Shown here: positions 3,476 to 56,855 of the stretch, piece after piece
How positions within the stretch are numbered: the first letter of the stretch is position 1
Layout of the letters: every line of letters starts with the position of its first letter
Source: Alphaproteobacteria bacterium
Lineage (GTDB): Bacteria > Pseudomonadota > Alphaproteobacteria > CAAGCB01 > CAG-977
Reading direction: 5' to 3'
Assembly: GCA_017539865.1 (NCBI GenBank)
Contig: JAFYCE010000101.1
Coordinates: 7,089 to 71,088 of the forward strand
Length of the DNA: 64,000 nucleotides
The notes under the pieces: model-generated
Databases searched by the model: none
What the model was told of the DNA's origin: nothing
The model's input: the letters and a program-made list of their open reading frames with translations, nothing else
Made by a program: the position numbers and the translations under genes

Positions 3476-3478
3476 TGT

Positions 3479-4896: not shown

Positions 4897-4994
4897 ACGT
4901 AAAAGAAATTCTTTTTTCGGGCGGATTGCGAAGCAATCGGGCATGGCATCGGGCGAAAAACGGGGCAGATACAGAATCGTATCCGCCTGAATTT

Positions 4995-5159
4995 TTAGAA
5001 GTAATATGTCGTTTTTTCCAAGTCGTCGCGCTTATATCCCTGCGCGATCAGTTCGTAAAATTTGGACAGTTGTGCGGCTTTGCTGTGAAAGTCGAAATGT
5101 TCTTTTTCGTATCCGTCCGCGCCGTAAATCGTCAGTCTGAAAAAAGCAATCTTCATTGT
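4995..5159 (-). CDS. Small hypothetical protein (54 aa) downstream of ardC.
   Basis: Strong RBS AGGAGGAAGAACA-ATG. Reads MKIAFFRLTIYGADGYEKEHFDFHSKAAQLSKFYELIAQGYKRDDLEKTTYYF. Confidence 0.4.
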   Translation of the reverse strand, partial: TMKIAFFRLTIYGADGYEKEHFDFHSKAAQLSKFYELIAQGYKRDDLEKTTYYF

Positions 5160-5185
5160 TCTTCCTCCTCTTTTGAGGGAAGCGG

Positions 5186-6058
5186 TCAAGCCGCTTCCCG
5201 TCCGATTTCCTGGAATGTCAGCAGATAGTCAAAAGCCTTTTGCGCTTCGGAGCAGGCTTTGAAAATCGCCTTTTTGTCGTTCTTCAAAACCTTGAGCCAA
5301 GATTTCAAGTAAGCAAGGTTGTTTTTGCTGAATTGATAGTCATAACCCAAATATCCGGCGACAAATCCCGCGCCGATGTCGGCGATCAGTTCCTCAAAGG
5401 CGTAGGATTCATTTCCGAAACGGCCTTTCATATCCCGGTTTAAGCGGTTCTTGTGTCCGGTCGCGTGGATTGTTTCGTGCGCCAAAGTCGAAACGAAGCC
5501 GGTTTCCGTTTTGAAGTCTTTTCTTTCCGGCATTAAGACAACATTGTTTTTCGGGTCGTAGCCTGCCAAAGTCGCGCCGTAAAAATAAGAGATGTCCGTG
5601 TTTTCAAAAAACGCCATCACGTCCTTTTCAACGCTAAATTCGGCTTTTTCGATGTCTTCGCCGAATCCCTCGACTTGCGAACCGTTAAACACGGAATAAG
5701 CGCGGGCGACAAAAGCCTGGTTTTCGACTTCTTCGATGTCGCCGGTTTCGGTGTTTTCGACTTCGCATTTATAGGAAAGAGGTTTCCAGAAAACGATGGT
5801 CGTCGCCTTTGAGTCTTTCTTGACCTGATAGCCTTTATCCTGCCATTGGCGATAAGTTCCCCAAACGGACGAGGAAAAACCGTTGAACAAAGCGGCAAAG
5901 TTCAAAATCAGAATGTTGATGCCGCGATAAGCCTTTTTTGTCGTGATGTTCCGGGCAAAAGAGGAAATAAACGGCTTTTCCCATTCGCCGGAAAAGTTTT
6001 CCAAATGTTCGATGATGGTGTTTGAAACGGTTTCGATGATGTCGAATTTATCAGTCAT
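5186..6058 (-). CDS. ardC: Anti-restriction protein ArdC (ssDNA-binding N-terminal domain plus C-terminal HExxH metalloprotease-like domain).
   Basis: Start re-set to MTDKFD (ATG at 6058, RBS GGAG). Motifs YRGINILIL and HETIHATGH are characteristic of ArdC/DUF1738. The ORF-track start at 6262 lies inside the repeat/leader. Confidence 0.7.
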   Translation of the reverse strand: MTDKFDIIETVSNTIIEHLENFSGEWEKPFISSFARNITTKKAYRGINILILNFAALFNGFSSSVWGTYRQWQDKGYQVKKDSKATTIVFWKPLSYKCEVENTETGDIEEVENQAFVARAYSVFNGSQVEGFGEDIEKAEFSVEKDVMAFFENTDISYFYGATLAGYDPKNNVVLMPERKDFKTETGFVSTLAHETIHATGHKNRLNRDMKGRFGNESYAFEELIADIGAGFVAGYLGYDYQFSKNNLAYLKSWLKVLKNDKKAIFKACSEAQKAFDYLLTFQEIGREAA

Positions 6059-6271
6059 TTTGAAAGCTCCTTCTCTGTAAAAAGCACTTGTTAAAGGGTT
6101 TTTGGCATCGCGCCTGAAACCCTTTCGAGGTGCTTCGTCGGAGAGAAGAAAGCGATTGTCATATTCCAAGAAAAACGGAGGGGTATCACCCATCTTGCAA
6201 CGACACCGGAGCGAAAGTCGGGGAAACCGTTTTTCTTCCGTTAGGCGGCAGGGAATTGACAATCAAGAAAA
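6041..6271. repeat. Copy B of the promoter/leader cassette repeat.
   Basis: See copy A. Hairpin at 6093..6125 and a TTGACA at 6256. On the minus strand it is upstream of ardC; on the + strand it is upstream of the HU gene. Confidence 0.8.
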
Positions 6272-7018: not shown

Positions 7019-7222
7019 ACTGCGCCATTTTTTAAACCGAACGGCGTTTGATATCAAGTCTTTTTTCAAATAAAGGGAAAAATATCCGGCGAAAAAAGGT
7101 TTTACGGTTTGTCGGAAAAGAAATTTTTAACAAATGATATCTATCATTTAGAACAGTGGAAAAGTTTCTTTAAGCAACAGTGGCCGGCTTTTGTTGCTTT
7201 TATATTTTTTAAGGTGTTCGCC

Positions 7223-10200
7223 ATGAGACAGACAAAAACGACAATTAAAGAATTAACCGCACGGTATAGAACGGTTTTGTTGAAGTGCGCATTGATAAAC
7301 GCCGCGTTTTTTATAACGGTCGGGACGGCAAAGGCGGAGGAAGAGATTCAACCGACAATCAATGTGTTGAAGGAATCTGCAACAGATTATTTGAATAATG
7401 AACATAAAAATTACGTGTTGGCGACGGAAAAAGGCGAACATACGGCGCAAATCGTTATCAACGGCACAACATACTATTTCACGCCGGATGAAAGCTCGCC
7501 GGAATTGAACGATGCGGTGGTAAATCTGGCGAATATAGGAGCCACCGCGCTTATTGCGGGAACGGCAAGCGATTATACTTTCTTCGTTCCGGCACCGGCA
7601 GGATATTTTAAATACGATCCCGCAAAACTGCCGTCTTCCGTTTACAGTTATTCTGATTCCGGTTCAGGGATTACTGCGGTTACTTTTGACAGCTCGCAGT
7701 ATCAGGTCATAAGTCAAACAAGCTTCGGAAGCGGGGGGGAAACCTATTCGTTTACTATAAATGAAGTACCGATAAATGCGCATTACGCATCTCCGTCTTT
7801 GATCAGACAGGTCATTGAAAGCAATGCTGATAATGTGTCAGGGGATTTTTATAATATATCGGGCGACACAATGGGCGGCGCGATTTCTTTTACCAGCACG
7901 GCGGGCGCTTATACCATAGGTTCCGTTAACAGCGATTTTATAGCCAACTATACAACGGACGGTCAAGGCGGCGCGATTTATAATTTTACGAACACGATAG
8001 GTACTATTTCGGGCGATTTTATAGATAACTATGCCGTTTCGACGGCAGATGACGCTTTGACCGCTTACGGTGGGGCCATTGTCAATCAGGGCGGTGCTGA
8101 AGGAACGGGAAAAATCGGTCTTATCAGCGGTAATTTTGTCAGAAACCATGTTGATTTATCCGCTTCGGCCGCAACAGAAAATACAAAAGTTTACGGCGGC
8201 GCGATTTTTAACTGGGATGTTGCCGAAATAGGGACTATTTCGGCGAATTTCATTGCCAACTATGCCAAAGCAAAACCCGAAAAAGAAAATCAAAATGTCG
8301 CCGGCGGTGCGATAGCGAACTTTTCCGAATCCTCTTCAGGGGCGCGTATCGGCAACATTACAGGTGATTTTATCAAAAACAACATTCAAAACGGCAACAG
8401 CAAAGCATACGGCGGCGCGATTTACAATCAATCTGTTATCGGCAATATCACCGGCGATTTTATCGCGAACACGATTACCCGAGCCGGCGGAGAAGGTTAT
8501 GGCGGCGCAATTTATAACGATGGGACTTTAGGAACGGTTACGGGCGATTTTGTCGAAAACTATGTAAAGAACAGCGCAGCCGGCAAAGCATACGGCGGCG
8601 CGGTTTATAATAACGGGACGATAGGTGCGATCACCGGCAGTTTCATAGGAAACTATGCTCAGGTAGTTGCCGGAGAGGGAACGGATGCGCACGGCGGCGC
8701 GATTTATACGAATTCTTCATTAAACTTTGTTGCCGATAACACATCAATGGTGTTTTCCGGAAACTATATCTCAAAAGACGATGGCGGAACTAAGGCTTAT
8801 GAGGCGATTTATGCGTCTTCCGCTTCCGCCGCGCTGACTTTTTCCATAAAAAATGAGGGCGAAGCGACCTTGTACGATTATATCAACGGGGTTGACGGTT
8901 ATTCGGTCAATTTCACGGGCGATGAAACCGGCACGCTCTATTTATTCAATGACATTAAAAATGCGGCTGTCACGTTGGATAAGGTCAAACTCAATCTTCA
9001 AAACAACGAAATCAAAGAATATGACGCTTTCAAAAGTTTGACATTGAACAGCGATATTCCTCTTTCGTTGGATATAAATTTGACTGGTGCTGGATCGGCA
9101 GACAAACTTTCAGCGATGAATGTTGATGCGAATGACCATTTTTTGATTATCGATTCAATCAAATTTTCAGGAGCGATGGAGGGGGCGTCGACCACTATAC
9201 CGGTGGTGGGAGACACTCTGAAAGATTATGTCAAACTTTCGGCGGATGATTTGACGGTTACAGGGCTGGGGACAGGGAATAAATATCTGATTGCGTATGT
9301 AAAAGATGCCGAAGGTGTTTTGAATGTTAAAACGGGGGCCGAAGCCACATTGGCTTCAGCGGTGGCTTCTACGGCAAGCGAGCGTGCTTATGTTTTGGGA
9401 GATAGTGAAGATATTGAGCAGAATCTCGGGGCGATGGGAGGGACGGCTCTTCATATTTTCAAAACAGGCGGCGGCATCGTCACGATAAACGGGCAAACTC
9501 ATGCGGGAATAACCGTTGGCGGCGGTCAAAGTTTGAGTATAAAGGATGTGCTATTCGCTAATTTCAGTACGGTCATCACCAATCAGGGCACATTGTCTCT
9601 GACAAATGTTCAAATCAATGGTGAAAATGCAATCGGAATCAATAATGGCGGAACATTAAAGCTGAATGGAGAAGTGATAATTGATACTTCAATCATTGAT
9701 ACGGCCGGTACGGGAAAAACGGAAATTGCGGCTGACAGCAACAACAACGTTTCTGCTGCTTTGACGCAAAATACGCTGACCGTTGCAACGGGGGCTTCTT
9801 TTACTGCGGGGACGGTGACCGTTACCAACGGCGGATCCATTGCCGCCAATGCGTCCATCTCGGGAGATATGGTTGTAAAGGGCGGTACTTTTACGGTTAG
9901 TGAAAACGGCAGTATAACAGGGACGATCGGGGTCGATCCGGCGGCGACAATGACGGTTGACAAAGGAGCTTTGGCTTCGGTTGAAAACAAAGGGACGATG
10001 CTTGTCAAAAACGCCAGTACGATAGGCGGAAATCTGGTCAATTCCGGAACAATAGGGCTTGATTCCAGCAGTGTGACCGGAAACATAACCAACTCGGGAA
10101 CGATGGGGATTAAAGACAGTGCCTCCGCTAACGTAACCAATACGGGATCATTTACGGTTGCCGGAAATTTTACGGGCAATTTGGAAAACCGTTCTCAATT

Positions 10201-11842
10201 TTCAATAAACGGAAATGTTAATTTTACCGGTTCGATTCATAATGACGCTTCCGCAAATATGAATGTCGCAAATACGCTGACCGTTTCCGGCGGTGTGACA
10301 AACGACGGCATAATAAAGGGCGGCGGAACGATCGCCGGAAACGTGACCAGCAGCGCTCAAGGAACCATCGGTACGTCGATGACAATTGGCGGAACATTGA
10401 CTTCTGCAGGGAACATCCTTTTGGAATCAAACACAACGACCCCCTATGCAATGACGGTCGATACGTTAAACATTACGGGCGGAAAACTGGTTTTATCCTC
10501 CGGAAACAAAACGTATCAGAAAGGCGATGTCGTTACGGTCATCAACTTTGATACGCTGGCGGGATTCAGCGGTTTTGAACCGTGGACGTATCTGACCGAT
10601 TTTGTTGTGGCGATGCCGCATCAGGAAGCGGATAAGATAACCGCGACGATAGATTTCATTCCAATGTCGCAGGAAGCGTCCACGTCTTCTTTCACACCCG
10701 ATGAACACAAGATTATCCAAGCCATTGATGACATTTATATGAATCAGGGCAAAGCGGATTTCGGCAGGTTTTATTTCTATACGCCGCAGGAATTGAAAGA
10801 ACAGGTCAATTTGTTGCGTTCTAAAGCCATGCCCGTTCTGAACGAACAGCTGCCTTTGACAAAAGTCATGTCATCGCAGGTTTATGCGCATCTGTTCACC
10901 AATTCAATGGTCAAAGACGCGGGAACGCTTTACCATCCGCATGTTCCCATGCAGCGGTTCCAAGGGGGCTATTATCGCGGGCGTTCCGGCGGTAGTACGC
11001 TGAAAAATCAGAAAGTGTGGGGGCAAATTCTGGGCGGCGTCACCAAAGAGGACGGAGACGCTTCTGTCGGTCGGAATGATTCAACGACCAGATCCGTCGG
11101 GGTCATGTTCGGATACGACCATGAAACTTCGGAAAAATTCATGTTCGGTTTTACGGCGGGAATGGCTTCCGCGAAATTAAGTCAGGATAATAATAAAGTC
11201 GATCTTCGCGATTATAGGGCGGGTTTCTATACCGCATCGCGATTCGGGCGCATGACGTTGAATACTCTGACGATGGGCGGCTTCCAACAGTATAATACCG
11301 AAAAGAATATGACGCTGGCCGGAATGGAAACCAAAAACAAAGCCGATTTTAACGGATATTCGGCGGAATTTAACGTCAATCTGGGATACGATTTCATGAA
11401 GGTACCGTATCGGGATTATTCTTTCCATATCCGTTCCTATCTGTCGGCGGATGTCAGTTATCTTCATCAGGACGCCTATAAGGAAAAAGGCAGCGTTATA
11501 TCGGCGATCGGTCTGAAAGCGATAGATGATACGTCGGTCAGTGTTTCTCCGGGGATAACGTTCGGTTATACTTTTTCGGAATCGGTTTTGACGGCGGATA
11601 TCGGATATCAACGTCTTCTCAGCGGCGGTTCGTTGCACAGTTCGGCTTATTTCGCGGCGGATGAAACTAAAACGACGTTTGCGTCGTTTGAAACAGAAGC
11701 GGATAAGGATTTCCTGAATGCCGGATTGGGCTTTAAAACAAAATTGACGCGCGATTGCCAGCTGAATTTGTGGGCGGGAACCAGAATATCCGACAAAACA
11801 AGCTCGTTGAATTTTGCAGCGACGTTTTCCTATGCGTTTTAA
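7223..11842 (+). CDS. Pmp-like autotransporter adhesin (type Va secretion): beta-helical passenger plus C-terminal beta-barrel.
   Basis: Start re-set to MRQTKTT (extended signal peptide ending ...TAKA). Nine GGA[IV]...FxxN repeats. The C-terminal 280 aa have alternating aromatic/hydrophobic beta strands ending ...ATFSYAF (terminal Phe). Confidence 0.85.
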   Translation: MRQTKTTIKELTARYRTVLLKCALINAAFFITVGTAKAEEEIQPTINVLKESATDYLNNEHKNYVLATEKGEHTAQIVINGTTYYFTPDESSPELNDAVVNLANIGATALIAGTASDYTFFVPAPAGYFKYDPAKLPSSVYSYSDSGSGITAVTFDSSQYQVISQTSFGSGGETYSFTINEVPINAHYASPSLIRQVIESNADNVSGDFYNISGDTMGGAISFTSTAGAYTIGSVNSDFIANYTTDGQGGAIYNFTNTIGTISGDFIDNYAVSTADDALTAYGGAIVNQGGAEGTGKIGLISGNFVRNHVDLSASAATENTKVYGGAIFNWDVAEIGTISANFIANYAKAKPEKENQNVAGGAIANFSESSSGARIGNITGDFIKNNIQNGNSKAYGGAIYNQSVIGNITGDFIANTITRAGGEGYGGAIYNDGTLGTVTGDFVENYVKNSAAGKAYGGAVYNNGTIGAITGSFIGNYAQVVAGEGTDAHGGAIYTNSSLNFVADNTSMVFSGNYISKDDGGTKAYEAIYASSASAALTFSIKNEGEATLYDYINGVDGYSVNFTGDETGTLYLFNDIKNAAVTLDKVKLNLQNNEIKEYDAFKSLTLNSDIPLSLDINLTGAGSADKLSAMNVDANDHFLIIDSIKFSGAMEGASTTIPVVGDTLKDYVKLSADDLTVTGLGTGNKYLIAYVKDAEGVLNVKTGAEATLASAVASTASERAYVLGDSEDIEQNLGAMGGTALHIFKTGGGIVTINGQTHAGITVGGGQSLSIKDVLFANFSTVITNQGTLSLTNVQINGENAIGINNGGTLKLNGEVIIDTSIIDTAGTGKTEIAADSNNNVSAALTQNTLTVATGASFTAGTVTVTNGGSIAANASISGDMVVKGGTFTVSENGSITGTIGVDPAATMTVDKGALASVENKGTMLVKNASTIGGNLVNSGTIGLDSSSVTGNITNSGTMGIKDSASANVTNTGSFTVAGNFTGNLENRSQFSINGNVNFTGSIHNDASANMNVANTLTVSGGVTNDGIIKGGGTIAGNVTSSAQGTIGTSMTIGGTLTSAGNILLESNTTTPYAMTVDTLNITGGKLVLSSGNKTYQKGDVVTVINFDTLAGFSGFEPWTYLTDFVVAMPHQEADKITATIDFIPMSQEASTSSFTPDEHKIIQAIDDIYMNQGKADFGRFYFYTPQELKEQVNLLRSKAMPVLNEQLPLTKVMSSQVYAHLFTNSMVKDAGTLYHPHVPMQRFQGGYYRGRSGGSTLKNQKVWGQILGGVTKEDGDASVGRNDSTTRSVGVMFGYDHETSEKFMFGFTAGMASAKLSQDNNKVDLRDYRAGFYTASRFGRMTLNTLTMGGFQQYNTEKNMTLAGMETKNKADFNGYSAEFNVNLGYDFMKVPYRDYSFHIRSYLSADVSYLHQDAYKEKGSVISAIGLKAIDDTSVSVSPGITFGYTFSESVLTADIGYQRLLSGGSLHSSAYFAADETKTTFASFETEADKDFLNAGLGFKTKLTRDCQLNLWAGTRISDKTSSLNFAATFSYAF
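7840..8720 (+). repeat. Array of nine GGAI / FxxN (Pmp-type) passenger repeats inside the autotransporter.
   Basis: GGAISF..SDFIANY; GGAIYNF..GDFIDNY; GGAIVN..GNFVRNH; GGAIFN..ANFIANY; GGAIANF..GDFIKNN; GGAIYNQ..GDFIANT; GGAIYND..GDFVENY; GGAVYNN..GSFIGNY; GGAIYTN..SGNY. Confidence 0.8.
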
Positions 11843-13902: not shown

Positions 13903-14171
13903 CCTTTGGCAAGAGGTGAGTCGTCTTTTTCCAGTTGTTTTTCCATAATCGTGCGAAGTTGATCCATTTGCTCCGATAATCGGGTCAAAACGGGTTTAAG
14001 CGTCCGGCAGTCCGCGTATCCTTCTTCTTTTATCAAACGGCAGATATTGCCGACAATGTCTTTCAATGAAGAAATGCTGACGATCCGTCCGCCGTTTATC
14101 AAATCCGCGGCGGCAGTCAGCAAGGCATCGGCTTTATCCAATTCGATTTGAATGTGTTCTATTGATGTCAT
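13899..14171 (-). CDS. Hypothetical soluble protein (90 aa) inside the flagellar gene run.
   Basis: ATGA overlap with fliO. Helical, not FliQ (no TM segments). Confidence 0.35.
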   Translation of the reverse strand: MTSIEHIQIELDKADALLTAAADLINGGRIVSISSLKDIVGNICRLIKEEGYADCRTLKPVLTRLSEQMDQLRTIMEKQLEKDDSPLAKG

Positions 14172-14461
14172 GACAGGACAAACCCCTTTTCAACGGAAAC
14201 ATTGAGTTCGTAAACGTAAGACAGAATTTCGGCAACGGCGGCGAACGCTTCGGGCGGAATTTCGCTGTCTAAATCCAAAGCGGCCAGAATCTCGGCCAAA
14301 TCGGCGTCCTGACGTACTTTGATTCCTGCGGCAAAAGCCAGCTCCAAAATCTTTTCGGCCAAATGACCGTATCCGCCGGCCGTTACGGTAGGCACTCCGC
14401 CTTTTTCCGGATCGTGTTTCAAAGCGACGGCAACCGCTCTTTTGGATTGATTCTGCGTCAT
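14168..14461 (-). CDS. FlhB C-terminal-domain-like protein (EscU/YscU/FlhB family small paralog).
   Basis: About 98 aa, soluble. The ...PTVTAGGYGHLAEKILELAFAAGIKV... stretch resembles the FlhB autocleavage/C-terminal domain paralogs (YlqH-type). Confidence 0.55.
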   Translation of the reverse strand: MTQNQSKRAVAVALKHDPEKGGVPTVTAGGYGHLAEKILELAFAAGIKVRQDADLAEILAALDLDSEIPPEAFAAVAEILSYVYELNVSVEKGFVLS

Positions 14462-14575
14462 TAAGACTCCGTTCTGTTTCAATCAAGTCTGACTCTTCGG
14501 ACTTAAAAAAAATTTAACGTTGATAAAAATAAGTTTTTATGCGAAAATTGGACAAAATTTGAAAGGATGTTTTTT

Positions 14576-15679
14576 ATGGATTCTTTTTCACGTCAGAACT
14601 TGACACGCCTTTTAAAACAGGCGGCTCAAAAGCCCGTTTGCGTTTTTACGGATTTGGATCAGACTTCCTGCATGGAAGGCAACAAGGAATACGCTGCGGA
14701 AAACAAAGCCGAAACAGGACGTCCCGCTTGCTATATGCAGCCGGAGATCAGACGCGCTTTGACCGATTTGCCTAAATCCGGCAGCGGATTTTACATTGTG
14801 ACCGGCCGTCACTGGGAAGATGTACGTATCAACGACGTGACCGGCGAAAAAATACCGGACGGAGCCTTCCATGATTTGCTGGGCGGCGTTAAGGATTTTG
14901 AAAACGCTTCCGTGGTGGCGGGACACGGCCGTTTGTTGGTCGAAAACGGAAAAACGACTGTTTTATGCCGTTCCGCTTCAAAGGAAGACGCGTTTAAGGA
15001 ACAGAAATTCGAACGCTATATCGGTGAAAACGTCATGGCGCTGAAAAAAGAAATCTTTGAACGCTGGCCGGAAGCGCGCGGTCATATCTTGGCCGAGTAC
15101 AAAAAGCATTTGAGCTATCTGAATCTGGCCGAGTTTGTCGAGTCGTCGCCTGAAAAAGGCAAAGAGATGTTCGCTTTTGTCGATCAACGCATGAAATATG
15201 TGATGGAAGGCAAAAATCCCGACGGGACAAAAAATCCGAACGCGCCGGAAAACCCGAACAACGCTTTGTATTATACTGTGGAGCCGACCGGTTCCATGGA
15301 AGTTCGTTCCAGAAACCAGTGCAAGCGCAACGGTGTCGAAAAGTCGGGCTTTTTGGAAAAAGCGTTTGAACAGGGCGGCCCCGTTCTGGTATTGTGCGAC
15401 AGTTTGGCGAAAAACGGCACGGATCGCGATATGGTTGAAGCCGTCCGCGATTATTTTCAGGCAAAAGGCGCGGCCGACCGCGTGTTTGTCATTCATGTGA
15501 TGAACGGCGAAAAGAACCGCATTACGGATAAATCGGATACGTGTTTCCCGACAATCGCCGTGAAGAATCCCGATGAGTTGGGGCAGATCATGAAAATGGT
15601 CGCCGGCCATTCCCGTTCGCGGAATGCCAAAGAAGCGGCTTTGACGCAAACAATGCTGAAGGGACGCGCCGGTCGTTAA
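14576..15679 (+). CDS. HAD-IIB, trehalose-phosphatase-like protein with a degenerate motif IV.
   Basis: Motif I VFTDLDQT (DxDxT), motif II IVTGRHWED, and an AGHG..NGKT block like OtsB. Motif IV is LCDSLAKNGTDRD instead of GDDxTDE. Confidence 0.45.
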   Translation: MDSFSRQNLTRLLKQAAQKPVCVFTDLDQTSCMEGNKEYAAENKAETGRPACYMQPEIRRALTDLPKSGSGFYIVTGRHWEDVRINDVTGEKIPDGAFHDLLGGVKDFENASVVAGHGRLLVENGKTTVLCRSASKEDAFKEQKFERYIGENVMALKKEIFERWPEARGHILAEYKKHLSYLNLAEFVESSPEKGKEMFAFVDQRMKYVMEGKNPDGTKNPNAPENPNNALYYTVEPTGSMEVRSRNQCKRNGVEKSGFLEKAFEQGGPVLVLCDSLAKNGTDRDMVEAVRDYFQAKGAADRVFVIHVMNGEKNRITDKSDTCFPTIAVKNPDELGQIMKMVAGHSRSRNAKEAALTQTMLKGRAGR

Positions 15680-15693
15680 CAAAAGCGATAACT

Positions 15694-15727
15694 TAAAAAA
15701 ACGGAGGATTTTTCCTCCGTTTTTTTA
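15694..15727. terminator. Bidirectional terminator.
   Basis: AAAAAAA-CGGAGGA-ttttt-CCTCCG followed by TTTTTTTAT. Confidence 0.75.
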
Positions 15728-16564
15728 TCTTTCCGTATTTTGCCTTTTTTTAGCGGTTATCAACGTTTCATTTTTAGATTTTTGCCTGTCATGATTCAAA
15801 AGAATCTGCTGCAAATTTTCTTTCGGGGCTTTATCGGCTTTGGAAATCGGGACGGAAATGCCGTGCGCCTCTCCCGAATATGAAACGCTGGCCGCTCCGT
15901 GGTGTTCCAGTGACGTATCGTGATGTCCCCAGCCGCTGCCGGAAAGGTATGCTCCTATGCTTAAACCGACGGTAGTGGCTTCCCGCAGGATATCTTTCGG
16001 TTTGGCGGTTCCTTTGACCCATTTTTTCGTTACCGCGGTCAAAGCTTTGATTTCCGGCGTTACGACCAATGCCGCGATACCTGTCCGCGCAATCAGTTTT
16101 CCATTGACCGCACCCGTCAGACCGCAAGCGACGACCGCCGCCCCTAAAGAAGCGAAAAGCATTGTTTTTGCAGCTTCTTTTCGATTTTTCTTGATAAAGT
16201 CGATGACGCCGGTCACTTTTCCTTCTTTGCGCTGTTGCTCCGCTTCACGGAACATGGGTTTCAACGCTTTGACGGCGTTGTATGTTCCCAAAGCGACCAA
16301 AGCGGGACCGCCGATTTGGCCGGCAATGTAGTATTTACTGATTCCCATGACCATATTGCGTATTTTTGTATAGTTGTTTTTAAAGCGATTGGTCATTTTT
16401 TTGTCAAATCGGATTATTTTATCCTTGACCGTTTTCAAAAGGGGAACGGAATCGATGACCTTATTTCTTTTTTGGGACACCCGGCGCTGTATCATCGCTG
16501 CATTTTGTGTAGCGGTGGCTGCAAAAGCTTCAATCGTTTCCTGTTTTAATGAAAGCCGTGCCAT
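15725..16564 (-). CDS. Hypothetical membrane protein.
   Basis: 279 aa with several hydrophobic segments (e.g. MLFASLGAAVVACGLTGAV). No known motif. Confidence 0.45.
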   Translation of the reverse strand: MARLSLKQETIEAFAATATQNAAMIQRRVSQKRNKVIDSVPLLKTVKDKIIRFDKKMTNRFKNNYTKIRNMVMGISKYYIAGQIGGPALVALGTYNAVKALKPMFREAEQQRKEGKVTGVIDFIKKNRKEAAKTMLFASLGAAVVACGLTGAVNGKLIARTGIAALVVTPEIKALTAVTKKWVKGTAKPKDILREATTVGLSIGAYLSGSGWGHHDTSLEHHGAASVSYSGEAHGISVPISKADKAPKENLQQILLNHDRQKSKNETLITAKKRQNTER

Positions 16565-49772: not shown

Positions 49773-50816
49773 ATGCGTCGGCTGATAGAAAAAGCGGAAA
49801 ATGAACATTCGTTGGACAAGGCGGATATCGTCGCTTTATTAAGCGATGGAGAATCAACACAAGAGTTATTGAATGCCGCGGACAGGGTTCGGGAACGGTA
49901 TGTCGGGTCGGCGGTTCATTTGCGCGGGCTGATAGAGTTTTCGAATTACTGCCGGCAGAACTGCTGTTATTGCGGAATACGCAGGGACAATAAACAAGCG
50001 CAAAGATATCGCTTAAATCCGGAAGAGATCGTTTTGCATGCGCGGGCGGCGGCGAAGCTGGGATTTAAAACGGTTGTCATGCAGTCGGGCGAGGACGTTT
50101 TTTTCACGGTCGACCGGATGACGGATATCATACGCGAGATAAAAAAGTCCGACATTGCGGTGACATTGAGCATCGGGGAAAAATCGTTCGAGGAATATCA
50201 GGCGTACCGCGAAGCCGGCGCGGACAGATATTTATTGCGGATAGAAACGACGGATAAGGAATTGTATCACCGGCTTGACCCCGGAATGAGCTGGGACAAT
50301 CGCCGCCGGTGTTTGTCGGATTTGAAATCGCTGGGCTATGAAGTCGGGTCGGGATCGATGGTCGGATTGCCCGATCAAAGTATCGAATCGATCGCGGACG
50401 ATATTTTGTTTTTCAAGGAAACCGGCGTCGACATGGCGGGGATAGGGCCTTTTATTCCGCACGGACAGACGCCGCTGGCAAACGCGAAGGGACGGGAATT
50501 CGTTTTGTCGTTAAAGACGATGGCGATAACGCGGCTGTTGCTGCCGGATATCAACATTCCGGCGACGACGGCGATGGAAACGCTGAATCCGAACGGCAGG
50601 ATCATTGCTTTGCAAAGCGGGGCGAATGTCGTGATGCCGAATGTGACGCAGGGCGAATACAGGAAAAAGTACGAGCTTTACCCCGGAAAAATCTGCGTGA
50701 ACGACACGCCGGTGAAATGCCGTACGTGCATTGAAGCCAAAATATTGTCCATCGGACGGACGATCGGAACGGGCAAAGGGTTCCGCGGGGAATTTTTGAA
50801 CGGCCGGCCGGATTAG
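49773..50816 (+). CDS. Radical SAM protein of the HydE/BioB/ThiH family (HydE-like).
   Basis: LRGLIEFSNYCRQNCCYCGIRRDNKQAQRYRL (CxxxCxxC cluster; HydE-like context). No hydG/hydF or hydrogenase genes adjacent. Confidence 0.65.
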   Translation: MRRLIEKAENEHSLDKADIVALLSDGESTQELLNAADRVRERYVGSAVHLRGLIEFSNYCRQNCCYCGIRRDNKQAQRYRLNPEEIVLHARAAAKLGFKTVVMQSGEDVFFTVDRMTDIIREIKKSDIAVTLSIGEKSFEEYQAYREAGADRYLLRIETTDKELYHRLDPGMSWDNRRRCLSDLKSLGYEVGSGSMVGLPDQSIESIADDILFFKETGVDMAGIGPFIPHGQTPLANAKGREFVLSLKTMAITRLLLPDINIPATTAMETLNPNGRIIALQSGANVVMPNVTQGEYRKKYELYPGKICVNDTPVKCRTCIEAKILSIGRTIGTGKGFRGEFLNGRPD

Positions 50817-51541
50817 CCGCCGCTGCACGACAGATTGTTGGAAACGGGGGTTTCCAGATTTCCTTCCACCTGTGTCAAGGCGACGATATAATCGTTGTTC
50901 AAGGCGGCGCCCAAAGTGCCGGACGCCATCGGGAATTTACAAGTGATATAGTCGGGCATAACGACGGCGCCGGAGGAGGAATTTCCGCCGGATTGGATAT
51001 AATAGGACGATGTCGCGCTGTTTGATATCGGTTTTAACAAACCGACGAAACGCGAACCGTTGGTGGCGTCGGCAATGGCGCGCAGAACGGTCATTTTCGC
51101 GGCTCCGCTGTATTTTTCGGGCATCGGACGGATGGTGGCGATATATTTGACGGTGTCTGTCAGATTGCATTTCGAAGCGGTCTGCGCGGCGGTCATGCAA
51201 AGCAGATAGGAACGGGTACCGTTTTGCGCTTTATACATCGTCGGCAGGTTTCTCCGGATGTGTCCCAGAAGCGTATCGTTTCCTCCGGTCAGAGCATTGT
51301 TGTTTGCGACGGCCAGTTGAACGATGCCGGTATTGATACTGTTGATGTATGTTTTGGCACTGTCGTTATAGCGCATGGCGTCCATATATCCGCGTTCCGC
51401 CGCCAGATGCTGCTGATAGGTGCTGAGCGCCATCGCCTGATATACGGGAACGACAAAATCGGCTTGTTCCTTTGTTTTTTCATGCAGGCTGCCAAACATG
51501 ACAACACCCATCAGCGAAGCCAGAACCATCCAGAAAAACAT
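50813..51541 (-). CDS. Hypothetical N-terminally anchored (periplasmic) protein, co-oriented 33 nt downstream of the giant pilin-like gene.
   Basis: RBS GGAGAAATTC-ATG. One N-terminal TM helix, then a Cys-containing, Asn/Ser/Thr-rich domain. Confidence 0.45.
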   Translation of the reverse strand: MFFWMVLASLMGVVMFGSLHEKTKEQADFVVPVYQAMALSTYQQHLAAERGYMDAMRYNDSAKTYINSINTGIVQLAVANNNALTGGNDTLLGHIRRNLPTMYKAQNGTRSYLLCMTAAQTASKCNLTDTVKYIATIRPMPEKYSGAAKMTVLRAIADATNGSRFVGLLKPISNSATSSYYIQSGGNSSSGAVVMPDYITCKFPMASGTLGAALNNDYIVALTQVEGNLETPVSNNLSCSGG

Positions 51542-51574: not shown

Positions 51575-54500
51575 TTATTTCATGTATCTACCATTACCAA
51601 TATCAAGAAGCGGGTTGTCCATCGGCGTTACGATGGGGAGATCGGCCGTGCCTTTAACGGCCATATTCGGCATTTCGAAGCGATCCGGATTGAAATAACA
51701 ATAGGTATGGGCGAGCGCGCTCCAACTGTCGGCCGGAATGCCGCCGAAATTCCAAATGAAACCGGAGGTGTTGTCGTTCGTCGGGGTGATTGTTCCCATG
51801 GCGACCCGCCATCCTTCTTCTCCAGAAGTTTCATCTACGTATTTATCTGCAACGATTCCCACGCGGGATCCGCCCTGAATGATGCTGGTCGCCGTGCGGT
51901 TCGTCTCATTGTCGGGAGGCAGATATCCGTAATTGTAGTTGGAACCGTTTGCCGCCACATTTGTAAAGCTTGACCCGTCGAATTCCGTGTAATAGGCCTT
52001 GATTGTATCGGAACCGAAGGCTTTTTGATAAATGGGGTTGACGGCCAGCAGCCGCGATATTTCAAACGCGTTCGGGGATACGGTCATTACGGCCTGATAT
52101 CCGTCAGGACAAGGTCCTTCATCGCTGGAGTATAATTTTTCAGTGCTTTCTGCGCCGGTATCGGTTTGGATCTCCGTTTTTACAAATTTTCCCGGAGCGG
52201 GAACCTTTCCCATGAACGGGTGCGCCCATCTGTAGTTTGCGTCACTTTCAATGTAGCGGTCTTTATCACTATTATATAAATCGAATTTGACATATTTTGT
52301 GCTTGCATCGCAACCGCCGCTGTTGGTGTTCGGGGCGCCGCTGTTTTCGCATTTACAGCTGTGTGCAGGATGGGTGCCTGAAGTGAAACCGTCGCAGTTG
52401 AATTCTTCGCCGCCGTTTGTCAATCCCAGATCCGCCGGCGTATAATAAGGCATTTTGAAAGAACAGTCGCCGGAGGCTGCACTGCAGGGCCAACGTCCGG
52501 CCCGATAACTGTTGGACAGAACGTAAATGCCTTTCAGAATGTAGTTGGGCAACGCTTCGCTTAACCGCGCGCCGCCGCGGGACGTGATTTTGATATCGTT
52601 CATCACGGAAATGAATGCGGGATCCACACGGAAACGGTCATACTTCTCATCTCTGTCATGTACGTTATAGGGGGTTGGCGCGCCGGCGCCAATCGAGGCT
52701 ACATTAATATCCACCGCCGCGTTTACGCCATTTAATTGGTACACATTACCAAGCATTTTTCCCTCATTAGCGTGGGAAGTATCAAGTTTGAGATGTCCTC
52801 TCGTATGGACAATATTCACCCATGCGCTGCCGTTCCAAATTTTGTCTTCCGGTTGGAAGAAAGAACCGCCGATACGTCCGCTTTCCGGATAAAACGCAAT
52901 GGGGCTGTTGCTTTCGCTGGCACTCCCTTGGATATTGGCTATTCTGATGGCTTTCCCTCTGGCGCCCATCTGACTCGTATCGCCGAAAACGGAAACTGAT
53001 AAATCCGTTCCGTTAAAATGGATACGGGGCGAGCTTCCATTTCTTACAAGCAGTTCCAGTGCGGTCTGGTCGCTACCATCGCTGGTGAGTTCGATTGCCG
53101 CTTTTGTCGGGGTCAGTTTGAACAGACCCATGTTGTGAGCTCCGATATTGGTTTGCAGCTGAATTTGCGGTGTAGAGTTTGATTCCAAGTTTAACATCGC
53201 CGTGCCGCTACTGCCCGTTGTTCCCACTGTCGCGTGTCCCGGAACAAACGTCGCGTTTGAATCAGCGGTTGCTGACCCGTCAAAATATCCTATTCTGGCT
53301 CTTCTGGTGTTCCCGGTTCCGATTAATTCCATTAAGTATGGGCCGCTGCTTATATTGATTAAAGTCGGAGCGTTCATATGAATATCAGCATTAGTCATAT
53401 GAAGTTGAGAAGAACTGTTCGTGCTTAATAGAATGTTGTTGTTTTCCATTGTCAAAGTGGAAGCGCCGCCGCGTATGGTCGCTTGCGTGGCAGCGTTTAA
53501 AGCCATACTTTGCGCATCCGCGTTTATGTCGGTACTTGCGGTCATGTTTATATACGAACCCGCGACCGTATTGATGTAACTGTTTGTGTGCGTATTGATG
53601 TAACCGCTTGCGGACGTATTGATGTTGCCTGTGTTCAGCGTGGTTCCGGAATTGTTTATGGCTAATCTGTTCGAGTCGTTGGATCTCATGGTAACTGTAC
53701 TATTTGTTGCAACGAACTTCGATTCACCATAGGACATAAAACTCTGTGAACCATCTATTTTAACGGATCCGTCACCTTTGTACAGGTGAGCTCTGTCTGC
53801 AGCCAACCACAGTTTTCCGCCGGTGCTGCCTTGCAAAAGGATATCGTTGGAGACATTCATAAGGACTTTGTCCGCTCCCAATGCGATCTTTGTCTTGCCG
53901 TCCGTATTCGTCCATGTCTGGTCGTTTCCCGCGCCGGTGTTTTGGGAACGGATGATGATTTTGCCGCCGACAACTTCCAATCCGCCGGCGTTTTTGATTT
54001 GATGGCAGGCGCCGTTCGTTCCGTTGTCGCAATTTTCATTGGCGCCGCCCATGTCCAAAGTCGTGAACATGGAATTCGCCCCCGGCATGCTGTTCGGTTT
54101 GCGATACAGGTAATCCCCCGCAAAGCCTTCCGCATAAACCGTTGTCGCCGCCACGCGTCCGCCGACGTCCGTGTTGACGCTGGCGTCATCGAAATAATCG
54201 CTGACATCGCCTTCCCAAATGCCTTGCGTTCCCAACAATTTTTTCTTGTCGACGGACAGCGCGGTCGACACTTTGCTGGTACGCATGTATCCGCCGTCCG
54301 CCCCGACCATCGAGGCGATGCGCGTCGCCCGCCGGTCGTCGATTTCCTGCGATCCGCTGTCGGATAAAACGACCCCCGTCATTTTATAACGGGAACATTT
54401 GATCGTCGCGCTCAGACCGCAATCCGCCCCGTTGCACGGGGACGTCGCGTATGTCGGCGATGTCGTGTCCTGTTTTTCAATACAAACCTGTCTGACGCCG

Positions 54501-54856
54501 AGCTTGTAATTGTCAATCAATTTGTTGCCGCGGAAGTTCGCTCCGTCAATCATGCTTGATGATAAATACGGCGCCAGATCCGACGCGGAAATCGATTTTT
54601 TGTTGACGGCGGTATGACTGCCGTTCAGTGTGTTGGCTTCCGACGCGTAATTCGACGTAATCCAGTTGCTTAACGCGTCTTTCAACTCTTTTATCTGACC
54701 GGCGATGGCGACTTCCTCCATTTCGGACGTGCGGTCGGCCGTCTGGCGGACAACCATCGGCGACATCATCGTCATCAATCCCAACAGCGCAATCGCTTCA
54801 ATCATCAACGCGCCGCGTTCGTTCATTTCCGTCTTATCGTTCCGATGCGCAACCAT
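51575..54856 (-). CDS. Giant (~1,093 aa) TadE/prepilin-like (class III signal) protein with a Cys/Asn/Thr/Gly-rich repeat domain; candidate pilus-associated adhesin.
   Basis: Start re-set to the ATG at 54856 (RBS AAGGAAGG). N-terminus is MVAHRNDKTEMNERG | ALMIEAIALLGLMTMMSPMVV, with Gly at -1, Glu at +5 and a hydrophobic stretch. The ORF-track start at 55147 adds 97 unlikely residues. Confidence 0.6.
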   Translation of the reverse strand: MVAHRNDKTEMNERGALMIEAIALLGLMTMMSPMVVRQTADRTSEMEEVAIAGQIKELKDALSNWITSNYASEANTLNGSHTAVNKKSISASDLAPYLSSSMIDGANFRGNKLIDNYKLGVRQVCIEKQDTTSPTYATSPCNGADCGLSATIKCSRYKMTGVVLSDSGSQEIDDRRATRIASMVGADGGYMRTSKVSTALSVDKKKLLGTQGIWEGDVSDYFDDASVNTDVGGRVAATTVYAEGFAGDYLYRKPNSMPGANSMFTTLDMGGANENCDNGTNGACHQIKNAGGLEVVGGKIIIRSQNTGAGNDQTWTNTDGKTKIALGADKVLMNVSNDILLQGSTGGKLWLAADRAHLYKGDGSVKIDGSQSFMSYGESKFVATNSTVTMRSNDSNRLAINNSGTTLNTGNINTSASGYINTHTNSYINTVAGSYINMTASTDINADAQSMALNAATQATIRGGASTLTMENNNILLSTNSSSQLHMTNADIHMNAPTLINISSGPYLMELIGTGNTRRARIGYFDGSATADSNATFVPGHATVGTTGSSGTAMLNLESNSTPQIQLQTNIGAHNMGLFKLTPTKAAIELTSDGSDQTALELLVRNGSSPRIHFNGTDLSVSVFGDTSQMGARGKAIRIANIQGSASESNSPIAFYPESGRIGGSFFQPEDKIWNGSAWVNIVHTRGHLKLDTSHANEGKMLGNVYQLNGVNAAVDINVASIGAGAPTPYNVHDRDEKYDRFRVDPAFISVMNDIKITSRGGARLSEALPNYILKGIYVLSNSYRAGRWPCSAASGDCSFKMPYYTPADLGLTNGGEEFNCDGFTSGTHPAHSCKCENSGAPNTNSGGCDASTKYVKFDLYNSDKDRYIESDANYRWAHPFMGKVPAPGKFVKTEIQTDTGAESTEKLYSSDEGPCPDGYQAVMTVSPNAFEISRLLAVNPIYQKAFGSDTIKAYYTEFDGSSFTNVAANGSNYNYGYLPPDNETNRTATSIIQGGSRVGIVADKYVDETSGEEGWRVAMGTITPTNDNTSGFIWNFGGIPADSWSALAHTYCYFNPDRFEMPNMAVKGTADLPIVTPMDNPLLDIGNGRYMK

Positions 54857-55273
54857 GGTGTCCTTCCTTTCTTTCGCCGTTTTTCTTTTCCGGCCTTCCG
54901 GCTTGTGCCGTCTCTTTACCTTTCCCGCCGAATCCGTTCCCGTCGCCCGAACAGGGCTTGCCGCGGACAGACTGCCGGCTTTTGTCTTGACTATCAGTCT
55001 AACGGTTAAAAAATCCGCAACGCAATGAAAAAAGTATATATCCGAGGTTATAAATAAAGGATTCCCGCCGTTTTCAAGAAAAATACACCTAAAGATATAA
55101 TCAATATAAGTTATTGAAAATAAACGATTCTGTTTTTTCCTTTTCAAGGACGGAAAAGATGAAAAATCTGTTTTTTTTATTCTTTCCGTTCCGTTTTTTT
55201 AGAAAAGCATGCGAATCGGATCTAAATCGAATCGCGGGAAGGCGTTTTTTTTATATTGTGCCGCCGGCAGAAT

Positions 55274-56149
55274 TTAATTCCCGCCGGGAGGGCGTGATGC
55301 CCCTACGGCCAGTAGCCAGTCGACGACATCGTCACCGGCGCCGAAATCGTACAAATCGACGTGATGCCCCGCCGGATAAAGCTTGAGCGTTTTGTTCGCC
55401 GAACCCGCCGCTTCAAATACCGCCTTCCCCTGTTCCACCGGAACGGTTTTATCCTTTTCACCGTGCAAGACCAGCAAGGGGGCTTGCAATTTCGCAATGC
55501 GCCGTTTCGATTCGTAGGTGTCTTTCAGAATATGCCTGACCGGAAACATCGGATAATGGACTTTCGCCGCATCCGTCATCGACGTGAAGCCGCATTCCTG
55601 AATCAATCCCGCCGGCGGACGGCGTTCCGCCAATCCGTTTGCCACTCCGGTACCCAACGACATGCCGTAATAATAAACCCGCGCGTCATCGCCTTGTTTC
55701 GACAATATGAAGTCCAAGCCCGCTTCCGCGTCGGCAATCAGCCCTTCTTCGCTCGGATGCCCCGGATTGCCGCCGTATCCCCGATACTCCAACAGCAATA
55801 CGCCGTACCCTGCGTTCACAACCGGTATCAATTTGTGCGCCGCATCCCCCGCCGGCCCCGTGTTGCCGTGCAGATACAATACCGTCGGCATCGCTTTCCC
55901 CGATTCCGTTGAACGCGGAGCTTTGTAATACGAAACCAATGTCAAGCCGTCTGCGGTCTTCAGCTCAATCGTTTCCAAGTCGGGCGATTCATCACGGTGC
56001 GGCGTGTTCACATGTCTGTGCGGGGCGTACATCAGACGGCGCTGAAACAGATAAATCGATCCCGTCAGAACGAAATACAAAGCGGCCAGACCGAAAATGA
56101 TTTCCAGCAATAACGTCATTCTTTTCCTAAGGGGTACAGTTGAAGTCAT
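55274..56149 (-). CDS. Alpha/beta-hydrolase (serine hydrolase).
   Basis: N-terminal TM segment; LYLHGNTG; nucleophile elbow GMSLG; C-terminal His region. Confidence 0.75.
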   Translation of the reverse strand: MTSTVPLRKRMTLLLEIIFGLAALYFVLTGSIYLFQRRLMYAPHRHVNTPHRDESPDLETIELKTADGLTLVSYYKAPRSTESGKAMPTVLYLHGNTGPAGDAAHKLIPVVNAGYGVLLLEYRGYGGNPGHPSEEGLIADAEAGLDFILSKQGDDARVYYYGMSLGTGVANGLAERRPPAGLIQECGFTSMTDAAKVHYPMFPVRHILKDTYESKRRIAKLQAPLLVLHGEKDKTVPVEQGKAVFEAAGSANKTLKLYPAGHHVDLYDFGAGDDVVDWLLAVGASRPPGGN

Positions 56150-56855
56150 AAATTCTCACATTTTCATCGGAAACAACAGCCGGAATGCGCCCCGACGGAA
56201 CAACATCCACCCCCGCTTTGTCCGATAACAGCCGGAAATTGCTGTTCGGACAAATGTTTTGAATCGTCCGTCGCGCCAGTTTCTTGTTATCGGAAACGGT
56301 TCCGCCGAACAGCCGTATCCGGATCTGCCGGTATCCGTCCGCCGCCGGCGGCAGAACATCCACATACGCGTTGACGTCGCCGATTTTATCCCAATGCCGC
56401 CGCGCTAAAGACCATTTTTGCTGCTCCGCCGCCAGATCCATGCCGTGCGGCGTTCCGGAACGGCAGGAATACGTCACCCCTATCGACGCGTCGCCGTATT
56501 GATAAAAGAAACGGTCGATTATCCGGCCGTTCAACGGCGCCGCCGCCGCGTCTATCGCCGGAAAAACGGGTGAACACGCCGCCGTCATTAAATTAAACGC
56601 CGTTTTTTGCGCCGCCTGAATGTAGCCGTCCGCCGTCGACGGCAACCCGTCGCGGTGCGTTTCCAAACGCAATTCCGTCCGTTCCCCCGCCTGAGTCCGG
56701 CGGACGAGAATGCGGAAAGAATCCATTTCCTGCCAGTCCTTATCCGCCGTTTCCCAGTACTTGTATTGCCGGTATAACGGATAGTCCGATTCATACAGCG
56801 GCTTCATACAGCCGGTCAACGTCAGCAAAGCGGTCAATAAAAACAGGCGTTTCAT
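56127..56855 (-). CDS. Hypothetical lipoprotein.
   Basis: Lipobox LTLTGC. No recognised domain. 1 nt after the prfB stop. Confidence 0.5.
   Translation of the reverse strand: MKRLFLLTALLTLTGCMKPLYESDYPLYRQYKYWETADKDWQEMDSFRILVRRTQAGERTELRLETHRDGLPSTADGYIQAAQKTAFNLMTAACSPVFPAIDAAAAPLNGRIIDRFFYQYGDASIGVTYSCRSGTPHGMDLAAEQQKWSLARRHWDKIGDVNAYVDVLPPAADGYRQIRIRLFGGTVSDNKKLARRTIQNICPNSNFRLLSDKAGVDVVPSGRIPAVVSDENVRIYDFNCTP

Follow-up and report, generated by a model that had tools for sequence, protein, structure and literature searches.

What does a protein of 1,093 residues with the N-terminus of a pilin do when it is encoded among housekeeping genes? The question is raised by a gene on the minus strand of a 64,000-nucleotide (nt) stretch of alphaproteobacterial DNA (contig JAFYCE010000101.1 of assembly GCA_017539865.1, positions 7,089 to 71,088 of the forward strand), which was analysed over its whole length and is called the window here. 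A preliminary description of this DNA, made from the sequence alone, had taken the gene for an orphan encoding a TadE-like giant pilin or pilus-tip adhesin. We concluded that the first ~300 residues are very probably a PilV-type pilin module, homologous to the base of PilV. The function that we favor for the whole protein, and consider probable, is that of a giant PilV-family tip or priming subunit, used with a PilM-like partner by an R64-like type IVb pilus machine and exposing a stalk and a cell-binding head.

The open reading frame (ORF) runs on the minus strand from an ATG at 54856 to a stop codon at 51575-51577, and its product is 1,093 amino acids (aa) long. The mechanically called ORF is longer and reaches a TTG at 55147; this start was dropped, as all 26 related loci begin at a Met 11-17 residues (in one locus 37) before the Gly of the signal described below. 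The Met position shared by these loci, together with the lack of conservation of the in-frame residues ahead of it, supports the ATG at 54856, which the preliminary description had also chosen on account of its ribosome-binding site. The parts of the gene are these:

51575..54856, minus strand: giant pilV-like gene, 1,093 codons plus stop (ORF and translation)
54861..54868, minus strand: Shine-Dalgarno sequence AGGAAGGA, 4 bases ahead of the ATG (read directly from the sequence)
54812..54856, minus strand: variable leader peptide, residues 1-15 (MVAHRNDKTEMNERG), ending in an invariant Gly that aligns with Gly−1 of PilV
53867..54811, minus strand: PilV-homologous pilin module, residues 16-330 (hhalign, BLASTP, tblastn, and AlphaFold2, AF2)
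52892..53866, minus strand: hypervariable β-repeat stalk, residues 331-655
53567..53625, minus strand: 24-nt (8-aa) tandem repeat, 2.5 copies, encoding (S)YINT units (Tandem Repeats Finder; repeat family D7)
51578..52669, minus strand: conserved C-terminal module, residues 730-1093, starting with FRVDPAFISVMNDIKITSRGGARLSEALPNYILKGIY (55% mean pairwise identity, many invariant columns)

The N-terminus reads MVAHRNDKTEMNERG↓ALMIEAIALLGLMTMMSPMVV (the arrow marks the −1/+1 boundary), with Gly15 at −1, Ala rather than Phe at +1, and Glu20 at +5. Gly15 and Glu20 were invariant in all 25 members of a set of diverse homologues that are 36-87% identical to the window protein (alignment A1), as was most of ALMIEAIALLGLMTMMSPMVVRQTADRT; the leader before the Gly was variable. 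In a 98-sequence family alignment (A2) each of the two residues was at least 90% conserved, and 119 of 131 representatives of the wider family kept [EQ]xG↓[ASTG][LMI][ML][VIL]E, followed by A.A.LGL. Mean pairwise identity was 46% in the leader (1-15), 85% in residues 16-70, 61% in the remaining N-terminal domain, 22% in the central region, and 55% in the C-terminal module. We read the N-terminus as a class III (prepilin-type) signal that aligns residue for residue with those of PilV minor pilins. The preliminary description had proposed such a signal and had named an alignment of orthologues as the check on it; the Gly−1/Glu+5 spacing was kept there, so the proposal was not refuted. A motif scan of the window and the related loci, including those with the type IVb pilus unit described below, detected no class III N-terminus besides that of the giant gene. 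The processing site of Tad pseudopilins has the motif G↓AxxxE, which the Ala at +1 and the Glu at +5 after RG resemble, and the preliminary description had placed the protein closest to TadE. A TadE-like N-terminus was rejected: the TadE model PF07811 gave no match at E ≤ 10 with residues 1-70, 11-42, or 1-319. The model of the G↓FT(L/I)xE N-methylation motif of type IVa pilins and type II secretion system (T2SS) pseudopilins, PF07963, matched nothing even at E ≤ 10 in N-terminal pieces of 70 and 32 residues.

The relatives that were detected are PilV proteins of R64-type pili. The decisive lead came from two homologues with a precomputed match to PF04917 (Shufflon_N), a model of the constant N-terminal region of PilV, which serves the thin type IVb pili of IncI plasmids as minor pilin and tip adhesin. 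On re-scanning, homologue P0086 scored 32.5 bits, above the cut-off of 27.5 (E 8.5e-8), and P0102 scored 25.2 bits; both matches cover a conserved block corresponding to window protein residues ~185-290. When residues 1-330 of the window protein were compared with 72,556 plasmids by tblastn, 70 records matched (best E 3e-7), and P0086 as the query matched 194. Among the 12 matches listed for the window protein, 10 lie within genes whose annotation reads 'pilV: shufflon system plasmid conjugative transfer pilus tip adhesin PilV' and the remaining two fall where the gene table has no annotation; the top plasmid matches were in Microvirga ossetica (E 3e-7), Rhizobium leguminosarum, and the Methylorubrum extorquens AM1 megaplasmid. 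Direct comparison with the Microvirga PilV by BLASTP gave E 3e-14, and hhalign with A2 gave 96.1% and E 3e-9 for the E. coli IncI2 PilV and 98.2% and E 3.5e-14 for the M. extorquens PilV-like protein. The alignments start at the signal, ERG↓ALMIE standing opposite DKG↓VSLLE (IncI2) and QRG↓LSLIE (Microvirga), so that Gly15 and Glu20 fall on Gly−1 and Glu+5 of PilV, and they include the common motif DYLYR..P.AN.M.T.DM, which in the pilin module takes the form DYLYR..P.ANSMFT.LDMGG. The module comprises a hydrophobic α1-N segment that has Glu at +5, a long helix extending as far as residue ~80, and a β-sheet head. The AF2 model, made with the 98-sequence alignment, has helices at 13-31 and 33-80, a kink at Pro33, and then a β-sheet domain, with block-mean predicted local distance difference test (pLDDT) values mostly of 70-88 for residues 41-240.

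The M. extorquens relative is a 649-aa PilV-like gene at ~707,031-708,977 of megaplasmid NC_012811 (11908-13857 of our locus L041), in a region unannotated in the PLSDB table. In their sizes and order, the ORFs upstream of it would fit an R64-like pil operon (MPF_I megaplasmid), and the strain is a cultured, genetically tractable alphaproteobacterium. The PilV-like protein shares an LP.Y..(K/R)G.Y motif with the giant protein.

A word-indexed search returned 181 homologues of the giant protein, nearly all full length, and an exhaustive HMMER search of 1.84 billion cluster representatives returned 472 clusters at E ≤ 0.001, with lengths of 890-2,171 aa. All named members are 'hypothetical protein' entries from metagenome-assembled Alphaproteobacteria. 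Species representatives in GTDB hold 22 loci, almost all in uncultured Alphaproteobacteria; several of their contig names indicate samples of rumen or human gut, and one reads 'Acetobacter sp. CAG:977'. We fetched 41 related loci and saw ~20 kb around each. A contig titled Limosilactobacillus gorillae (CAVCSV010000033.1, locus L012) carries an alphaproteobacterial locus whose giant and partner proteins are 71% and 78% identical to those of L003, a locus of species HGM16787; this contig is probably mis-binned. A literature search on pili of this clade found no description.

Beyond the pilin module, β-strand alternation was found in the central region family-wide, together with a hydrophobicity period of ~8 residues at 2.1 times the shuffled value; this periodicity is absent from the N- and C-terminal parts of the family and is not significant in the window protein alone. 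The stalk region is 250-439 aa long and essentially unalignable across species. The degenerate YINT-type repeats noticed in the preliminary description correspond to the 24-nt tandem repeat listed above. DUF2345, the C-terminal β-helical region of VgrG spikes, matched the stalk in 14 of the 25 members (best E 7e-9) and in the window protein stayed below threshold (E 0.003, 17.8 bits against a cut-off of 30.7); no VgrG base domains (gp27/gp5-like) were found in the window protein. An hmmsearch of PDB sequences with the family profile gave only weak repeat matches, to a Dot/Icm substrate and VgrG, and fold searches gave only weak matches to fiber-like or single-sheet β proteins (T4 gp34, Mu tail fiber, OspA, and phi92 gp138).

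The C-terminal module of ~365 residues carries the conserved Cys791, Cys798, Cys916, and Cys1053 and variable loops, and AF2 predicts for it a β-rich fold with block-mean pLDDT mostly of 60-89 and a low-confidence stretch at 943-977. It has no relative in Pfam, PDB, or PHROG; the sole relative is the C-terminus of the M. extorquens PilV-like protein, to which there is a short colinear match (ARLSEALPNYILKGIY versus VRLGELLPRYVARGLY, pairwise E 6e-4). The Cys clusters quoted in the preliminary description are all present. Ten cysteines occur in 85-100% of homologues (C125, C141, C154, C276, C284, C791, C798, C916, and C1053 in 93-100%, and C821 in 85%), and four (C146, C834, C836, and C849) in just 3%. 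As that description had also stated, there is no domain of the von Willebrand factor A (vWA) type, nor does any other Pfam or NCBIfam domain score above threshold. A PHROG search with the giant protein, two homologues, and the PilM-like partner yielded no match. A 2,136-aa member retains both end modules around an unrelated 1,330-aa middle; from this exchange we read the architecture as a pilin base, an exchangeable stalk, and a conserved head.

The giant gene is followed by a second gene of the same strand:

50813..51541, minus strand: partner gene, 242 aa, predicted PilM-like leaderless pilin fold, beginning 33 nt after the stop codon of the giant gene

In each of the 25 loci whose sequence continues beyond the giant gene, a homologue of this partner comes directly downstream of it, and the notion of an orphan gene was therefore abandoned. 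The partner starts with a conserved hydrophobic segment, M(F/Y)FW..LASLMG, with no room for a leader, and its structure model, for which the alignment was built from database hits, has a leaderless pilin fold that is closest to PilM and also resembles type IVb pilins. The pYR4 PilM is also leaderless and begins MIYWLLSIFVG; its profile comparison with the partner (hhalign) was not significant. The PilM of R64-type pili (PF07419; PDB 3eoi, 3hg9) differs in length, ~141 aa as against 242-300 aa for the partner, and shows no significant sequence or profile similarity to it. We regard the partner as a probable PilM-like protein. In PAPI-1 (pilL N O P Q R S T V M), pilV is directly followed by pilM, and so it is in Burkholderia pseudomallei Tfp7, where the order is pilV M S R Q P O N plus TcpQ (PMC3984277).

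In L003, the partner gene is closely followed downstream by three paralogues of 186-221 aa in tandem (14042-15844, minus strand). They have no Pfam match on record and share the motif WN.HHK.P..GGG.NEF.N, possibly HNH- or colicin-DNase-like.

Pfam scans of 45 ORFs of the window found housekeeping genes and no pilus, Tad, T2SS, or A24-peptidase genes, in agreement with the preliminary description; the giant gene is chromosomal and unlinked to pilS, pilT, and pilU. Machinery was found in related metagenome-assembled genomes (MAGs). In HGM16787 (loci L003, L004, and L010) the giant-partner pair lies directly downstream of a seven-gene unit whose order is an ~700-790-aa unknown protein, TcpQ, the PilN secretin, PilO2 (PF06864), a PilP-like protein (the likeness lying in its C-terminus), a GspE/PilB-type ATPase, and a platform protein. 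The same unit, with the ~700-790-aa unknown gene at its head, is conserved in five other contigs (L027, L029, L031, L032, and L040), where it holds no pilin, pilM, pilV, or peptidase gene. In these five contigs (positions ~1-5,200 of each) the unit is always divergent from type IV secretion system (T4SS) genes, namely, TrbC/VirB2, a 96-97-aa VirB3-sized gene, and an 807-aa VirB4, and three of them share a downstream housekeeping flank (Peptidase_M3, Fe-ADH, and AccA). The locus looks like a chromosomal, vertically kept T4SS-plus-pilus locus, not a plasmid or an integrative and conjugative element. Of the 530 homologues of PilO2, several from Alphaproteobacteria MAGs bear the name 'type 4b pilus protein PilO2'. 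MAG RGIG5000 has the unit on contig JAFVAT010000013 and the pair of giant and partner genes on JAFVAT010000034, and thus the unlinked pair and the machinery coexist in one genome bin. Our main reason for linking the two is their complementarity, the genes missing from the unit being precisely those of the pair; to this is added the homology. Because the giant protein is homologous to PilV and its constant partner has a fold closest to PilM, the two genes look like the displaced pilV-pilM pair of a chromosomal R64-like pilus system, the other genes of which would lie elsewhere in the genome. Tad components appeared neither in the Pfam scans of the window ORFs nor in the Pfam listings for L001-L004 and L036-L038.

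In L003 the 630-nt gap between the platform gene and the giant gene, called as a 162-aa ORF, contains a 156-nt tandem repeat (9388-9721, 2.1 copies, 98% identical) and a 29-nt repeat (9734-9803).

We propose that the preprotein would insert in the inner membrane through its hydrophobic α1-N segment and that a prepilin peptidase encoded in trans would, as the alignment with PilV suggests, cut it after Gly15, leaving Ala at +1 and Glu at +5. The pilin module (16-330) would be taken up by the machine of PilN, PilO2, PilP, ATPase, and platform protein and placed at the pilus tip, probably in an assembly-priming complex, possibly as a trimer like CofB, in which the PilM-like partner would take part. 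The stalk of 8-residue β-repeats (~325 aa here) would hold the Cys-bearing C-terminal module off the fiber, where this module may bind a ligand on the surface of another cell. Recombination between strains, in place of the shufflon of plasmid PilV, would diversify the exposed stalk and head. In TP114, the PilV adhesins are reported to set the specificity of conjugation (PMC9045228). By analogy with IncI PilV, and given the T4SS genes beside the machinery, the role is likely to be one in cell-cell contact in the gut.

The diversity can be seen directly between strains. Two conspecific contigs from other samples (L036 and L037) are collinear with the window, and their flanking genes are mostly 94-100% identical to it; inside the giant gene, blocks drop to 60-77%. 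Relative to L036, identity was 65-77% at 53,027-52,449 and 51,851-51,606 and 99-100% in the 5' third; relative to L037, it was another block, 54,200-53,300, that fell to 60-87%. Two independent assemblies (L037 and L038, position 1-2495) begin inside the giant gene and so encode an 830-aa truncated product, which suggests that metagenome assemblies break there because strains differ in the hypervariable part. The window was searched for additional copies of any segment of the gene, for meaningful inverted repeats, and for silent cassettes or sfx-like repeats indicative of a shufflon, and none were found; Pfam scans of the ORFs between 42.4 and 60.5 kb detected no recombinase. Because such cassettes, repeats, and nearby recombinase genes are lacking, the mosaicism resembles allelic recombination between strains rather than a shufflon; the variation is observed, and this is what looks like its cause. 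As in plasmid PilV, the result is a pilin base that stays constant and an exposed part that varies. Not all PilV proteins have a shufflon, which marks a subgroup and not the family.

Several observations weigh against our proposal. The window protein, whether scanned whole or as N- and C-terminal pieces, scores above no Pfam or NCBIfam threshold (its sub-threshold matches, to DUF2345, ChapFlgA, and flgA_cterm, are all weak), and its membership in the PilV family is therefore based on comparisons of profiles and of sequence pairs. Fold searches with the full-length model returned no pilins. The AF2 model of the stalk is of low confidence, as would fit a region that folds only as an oligomer, possibly a trimer. 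The C-terminal module is better conserved than the stalk, which is unusual in a receptor-binding tip. Adjacency of the unit and the pair was seen in one species alone, HGM16787, and the evidence for machinery comes from related MAGs, not from the window's own genome, which was seen over 64 kb. A prepilin peptidase, PilS, and a PilT-like transglycosylase were found neither in the window nor in the 41 fetched loci; a scan with the A24 peptidase motif G.GD.K yielded no peptidase, and the gap after the platform gene of L032 contains no small pilin ORF. With no peptidase, PilS, or PilT-like gene found, cleavage of the signal and a fiber for the protein to sit on are putative.

The last of these points is also what would be expected of a PilV-derived protein that serves no long pilus, either as an uncleaved signal-anchor protein of the inner membrane or as the surface fiber of a short, T2SS-like pseudopilus: no major pilin or peptidase gene lies in the unit, near the pair, or in the fetched loci, and the giant gene and its partner are the only pilin-like genes that were seen. 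We consider this explanation unlikely. With just ~20 kb seen per locus, pilS and pilU may sit elsewhere, as pilU does in PAPI-1 and Tfp7, whose operons lack this peptidase gene and have it supplied in trans (PMC3984277). Furthermore, the conservation of Gly−1, Glu+5, and α1 (85% identity) fits filament packing and recognition by a peptidase and goes beyond the needs of a simple anchor, and the secretin and assembly ATPase are conserved.

Unlikely to a similar degree is an arrangement in which, in these Alphaproteobacteria of gut and rumen, a chromosomal, vertically inherited R64-like machine beside a T4SS has, as its only tip, a trimeric tail-fiber- or VgrG-like fiber with the PilM-like pilin, possibly with no conventional major pilin; such a tip would bring about the contact with other cells on which the T4SS acts and would be diversified by recombination between strains, as are the receptor-binding proteins of phages. 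If this were true, the protein would be a hybrid of a type IV pilus tip and a tail-fiber-like spike, its trimer comprising a pilin base, an intertwined octad β-helix, and a conserved head.

Some of the same features could belong to a weapon, that is, a contact-dependent piercing or toxin spike in which a trimeric VgrG- or tail-fiber-like β-helix is mounted on the pilin module and the C-terminal module is an effector. The DUF2345 matches, the weak match to a VgrG spike among PDB sequences, the 8-residue periodicity, the conservation of the C-terminal module, and the T4SS genes flanking the machinery unit would all suit such a spike, as would the resemblance of the model to T4 gp34, the Mu tail fiber, the phi92 gp138 spike, and a Bdellovibrio fiber. 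However, the structural matches are all weak (Foldseek E values of at least 0.016) and fall in the low-confidence part of a monomer model, scans of Pfam, NCBIfam, and PHROGs gave no toxin, enzyme, or immunity-gene signature, the partner has the fold of a pilin and is not immunity-like, and canonical PilV adhesins carry repeat stalks too; we think a spike quite improbable. A pseudopilin of the TadE, TadF, or TadG type that belongs to a Tad (Flp/Cpa) pilus and is cleaved by a TadV/CpaA peptidase is highly improbable despite the resemblance of the processing site, the frequency of tad loci in Alphaproteobacteria, and the precedent of unlinked 'tip' clusters with large minor pilins in a Tad-like system (PMC12075869), as the two N-terminal models are silent, all sequence and profile matches are to the PilV of R64-type systems, the likeness of the partner is to PilM and type IVb pilins, and the machinery adjoining the gene is of the PilN/PilO2 type and not of the CpaC/CpaF type.

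The surroundings of the giant gene in the window are these:

54857..55273, minus strand: upstream intergenic region of 417 nt, of lower GC, in which the scan identified no promoter
55274-56149, minus strand: α/β hydrolase (S33/Hydrolase_4), upstream neighbor of the giant gene
56127-56855, minus strand: ORF of 242 aa that appears to carry a lipoprotein-type signal (MKRLFLLTALLTLTGC) and matches no family, upstream neighbor

The AT-rich promoter that the preliminary description had placed at 55020-55150 proved to be merely a stretch of lower GC (0.455-0.463) with no sigma-70-like site on the minus strand in the promoter scan; the promoter and terminator scan gave no informative result. In L036, the sole related locus with sufficient upstream sequence, only a 64-aa called gene stands at the position of the hydrolase and the lipoprotein-type ORF, and we therefore treated these two as unrelated neighbors.

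In four species an ATPase of ~322-341 aa resembling PilT, PilU, DotB, and TraJ is encoded 5-6 kb from the giant gene, adjoining genes for an ABC transporter, maybe for zinc uptake (znu-like):

L024 3855-4823; L013 3134-4108; L026 3793-4764; L022 19865-20890: PilT-like ATPase

This enzyme may serve in retraction or in a T4SS. In L005-L026, no T2SSE or T2SSF homologue beyond this ATPase was present within 10 kb of the giant gene, and tblastn with the L003 ATPase, the search that detected the gene in the four loci, found no match in the window. Because of this and of its transporter neighbors, the candidate retraction ATPase was set aside. Elsewhere in the window, a 1,577-aa ORF (7109-11842, plus strand) with a C-terminal autotransporter β-domain (PF03797, E 6e-33) encodes a second very large surface protein, and a cluster at 87-6262 resembles the remnant of a mobile element. 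It encodes a 553-aa protein whose match to the N-terminal part of the phage T7 tail fiber is just below threshold (23.6 against 25.2 bits), a protein with a MobA/VirD2-type relaxase domain, and a protein with ArdC-N and zincin metallopeptidase domains; a weak match to HNH endonucleases is below the cut-off.

Among known systems, we compared the giant protein first with PilV (R64/IncI1, IncI2 TP114, pYR4, and PAPI-1-type). The N-terminal ~300 residues are homologous, including the class III signal and the DYLYR motif; in canonical PilV the pilin module is likewise followed by a repeat stalk, rich in Gly, Asn, and Thr, and the context of R64-type PilV is alike, with PilN, PilO2, PilP, ATPase, and platform genes beside T4SS genes. 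The giant proteins differ in being 2-5 times larger (1,093 aa here and up to 2,171, against 428-649 aa), in having a hypervariable, DUF2345-like stalk about twice as long, and in ending with a ~365-aa module unrelated to the CSP.GLV...C..G.W shufflon C-termini; they have no sfx repeats, Rci recombinase, or alternative C-terminal cassettes. PilV normally lies within a pilL-pilV operon with pilS and pilU, whereas the giant gene, over the 64 kb of the window, does not, and unlike known PilV the window protein goes undetected by the PilV models of Pfam and NCBIfam. The minor pilins CofB (enterotoxigenic E. coli CFA/III) and TcpB (Vibrio cholerae toxin-coregulated pilus) show no sequence similarity, are ~390-500 aa long, carry an H-type lectin head, and belong to another variant of the machinery, without PilO2 or PilM. 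The VgrG/gp5-type spikes resemble the giant protein in stalk sequence (DUF2345, in many members) and octad periodicity; the giant protein, however, has neither gp27/gp5 head domains nor a type VI secretion context, and the similarity is in the repeat region only. The TadG and KilN 'Tip' minor pilins are alike in their large size, variable distal domains, clusters away from the machinery, and interchangeable tips (PMC12075869), but belong to the Tad pilus class and have no detected sequence similarity to the giant protein.

The modular type IV pilins (PilB and PilC of Streptococcus sanguinis) follow the same concept, a pilin module carrying a grafted functional module at the tip (PMC8179133). 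A survey of them found ~1,200 proteins, the largest of 860 residues, and noted that modules without signatures would cause many others to be overlooked (PMC8179133). That survey needed both the IPR012902 N-methyl motif and a known extra domain (PMC8179133); the giant family has neither and is such a signature-less case. Thus, of the alternatives offered in the preliminary description, a very large modular pilin stands, probably as a tip adhesin, and a new class does not, as modular pilins and PilV tips are already known; known as well are large tip pilins encoded away from the machinery in a Tad-like system.

This is not a new kind of machine. What the finding offers is an extension of a known machine and a pointer to the missing major pilin and peptidase. 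A role that can be tested, and a name, are now available for several hundred sequence clusters of 'hypothetical proteins' of 890-2,171 aa, and the failure of the Pfam and NCBIfam models of PilV and PilM to detect the giant and partner proteins is a blind spot of annotation. The separation of unit and pair, together with the mosaicism between strains, suggests that hosts, phages, or partner cells put surface recognition in these poorly known commensals under strong pressure to diversify. PilV-type tip adhesins are not confined to conjugative plasmids and here are much larger, with a new module at the distal end; relative to known PilV, what is new is the giant size, the chromosomal site, the absence of a shufflon, the DUF2345-like stalk, the conserved head, the obligatory PilM-like partner, and the invisibility to annotation models.

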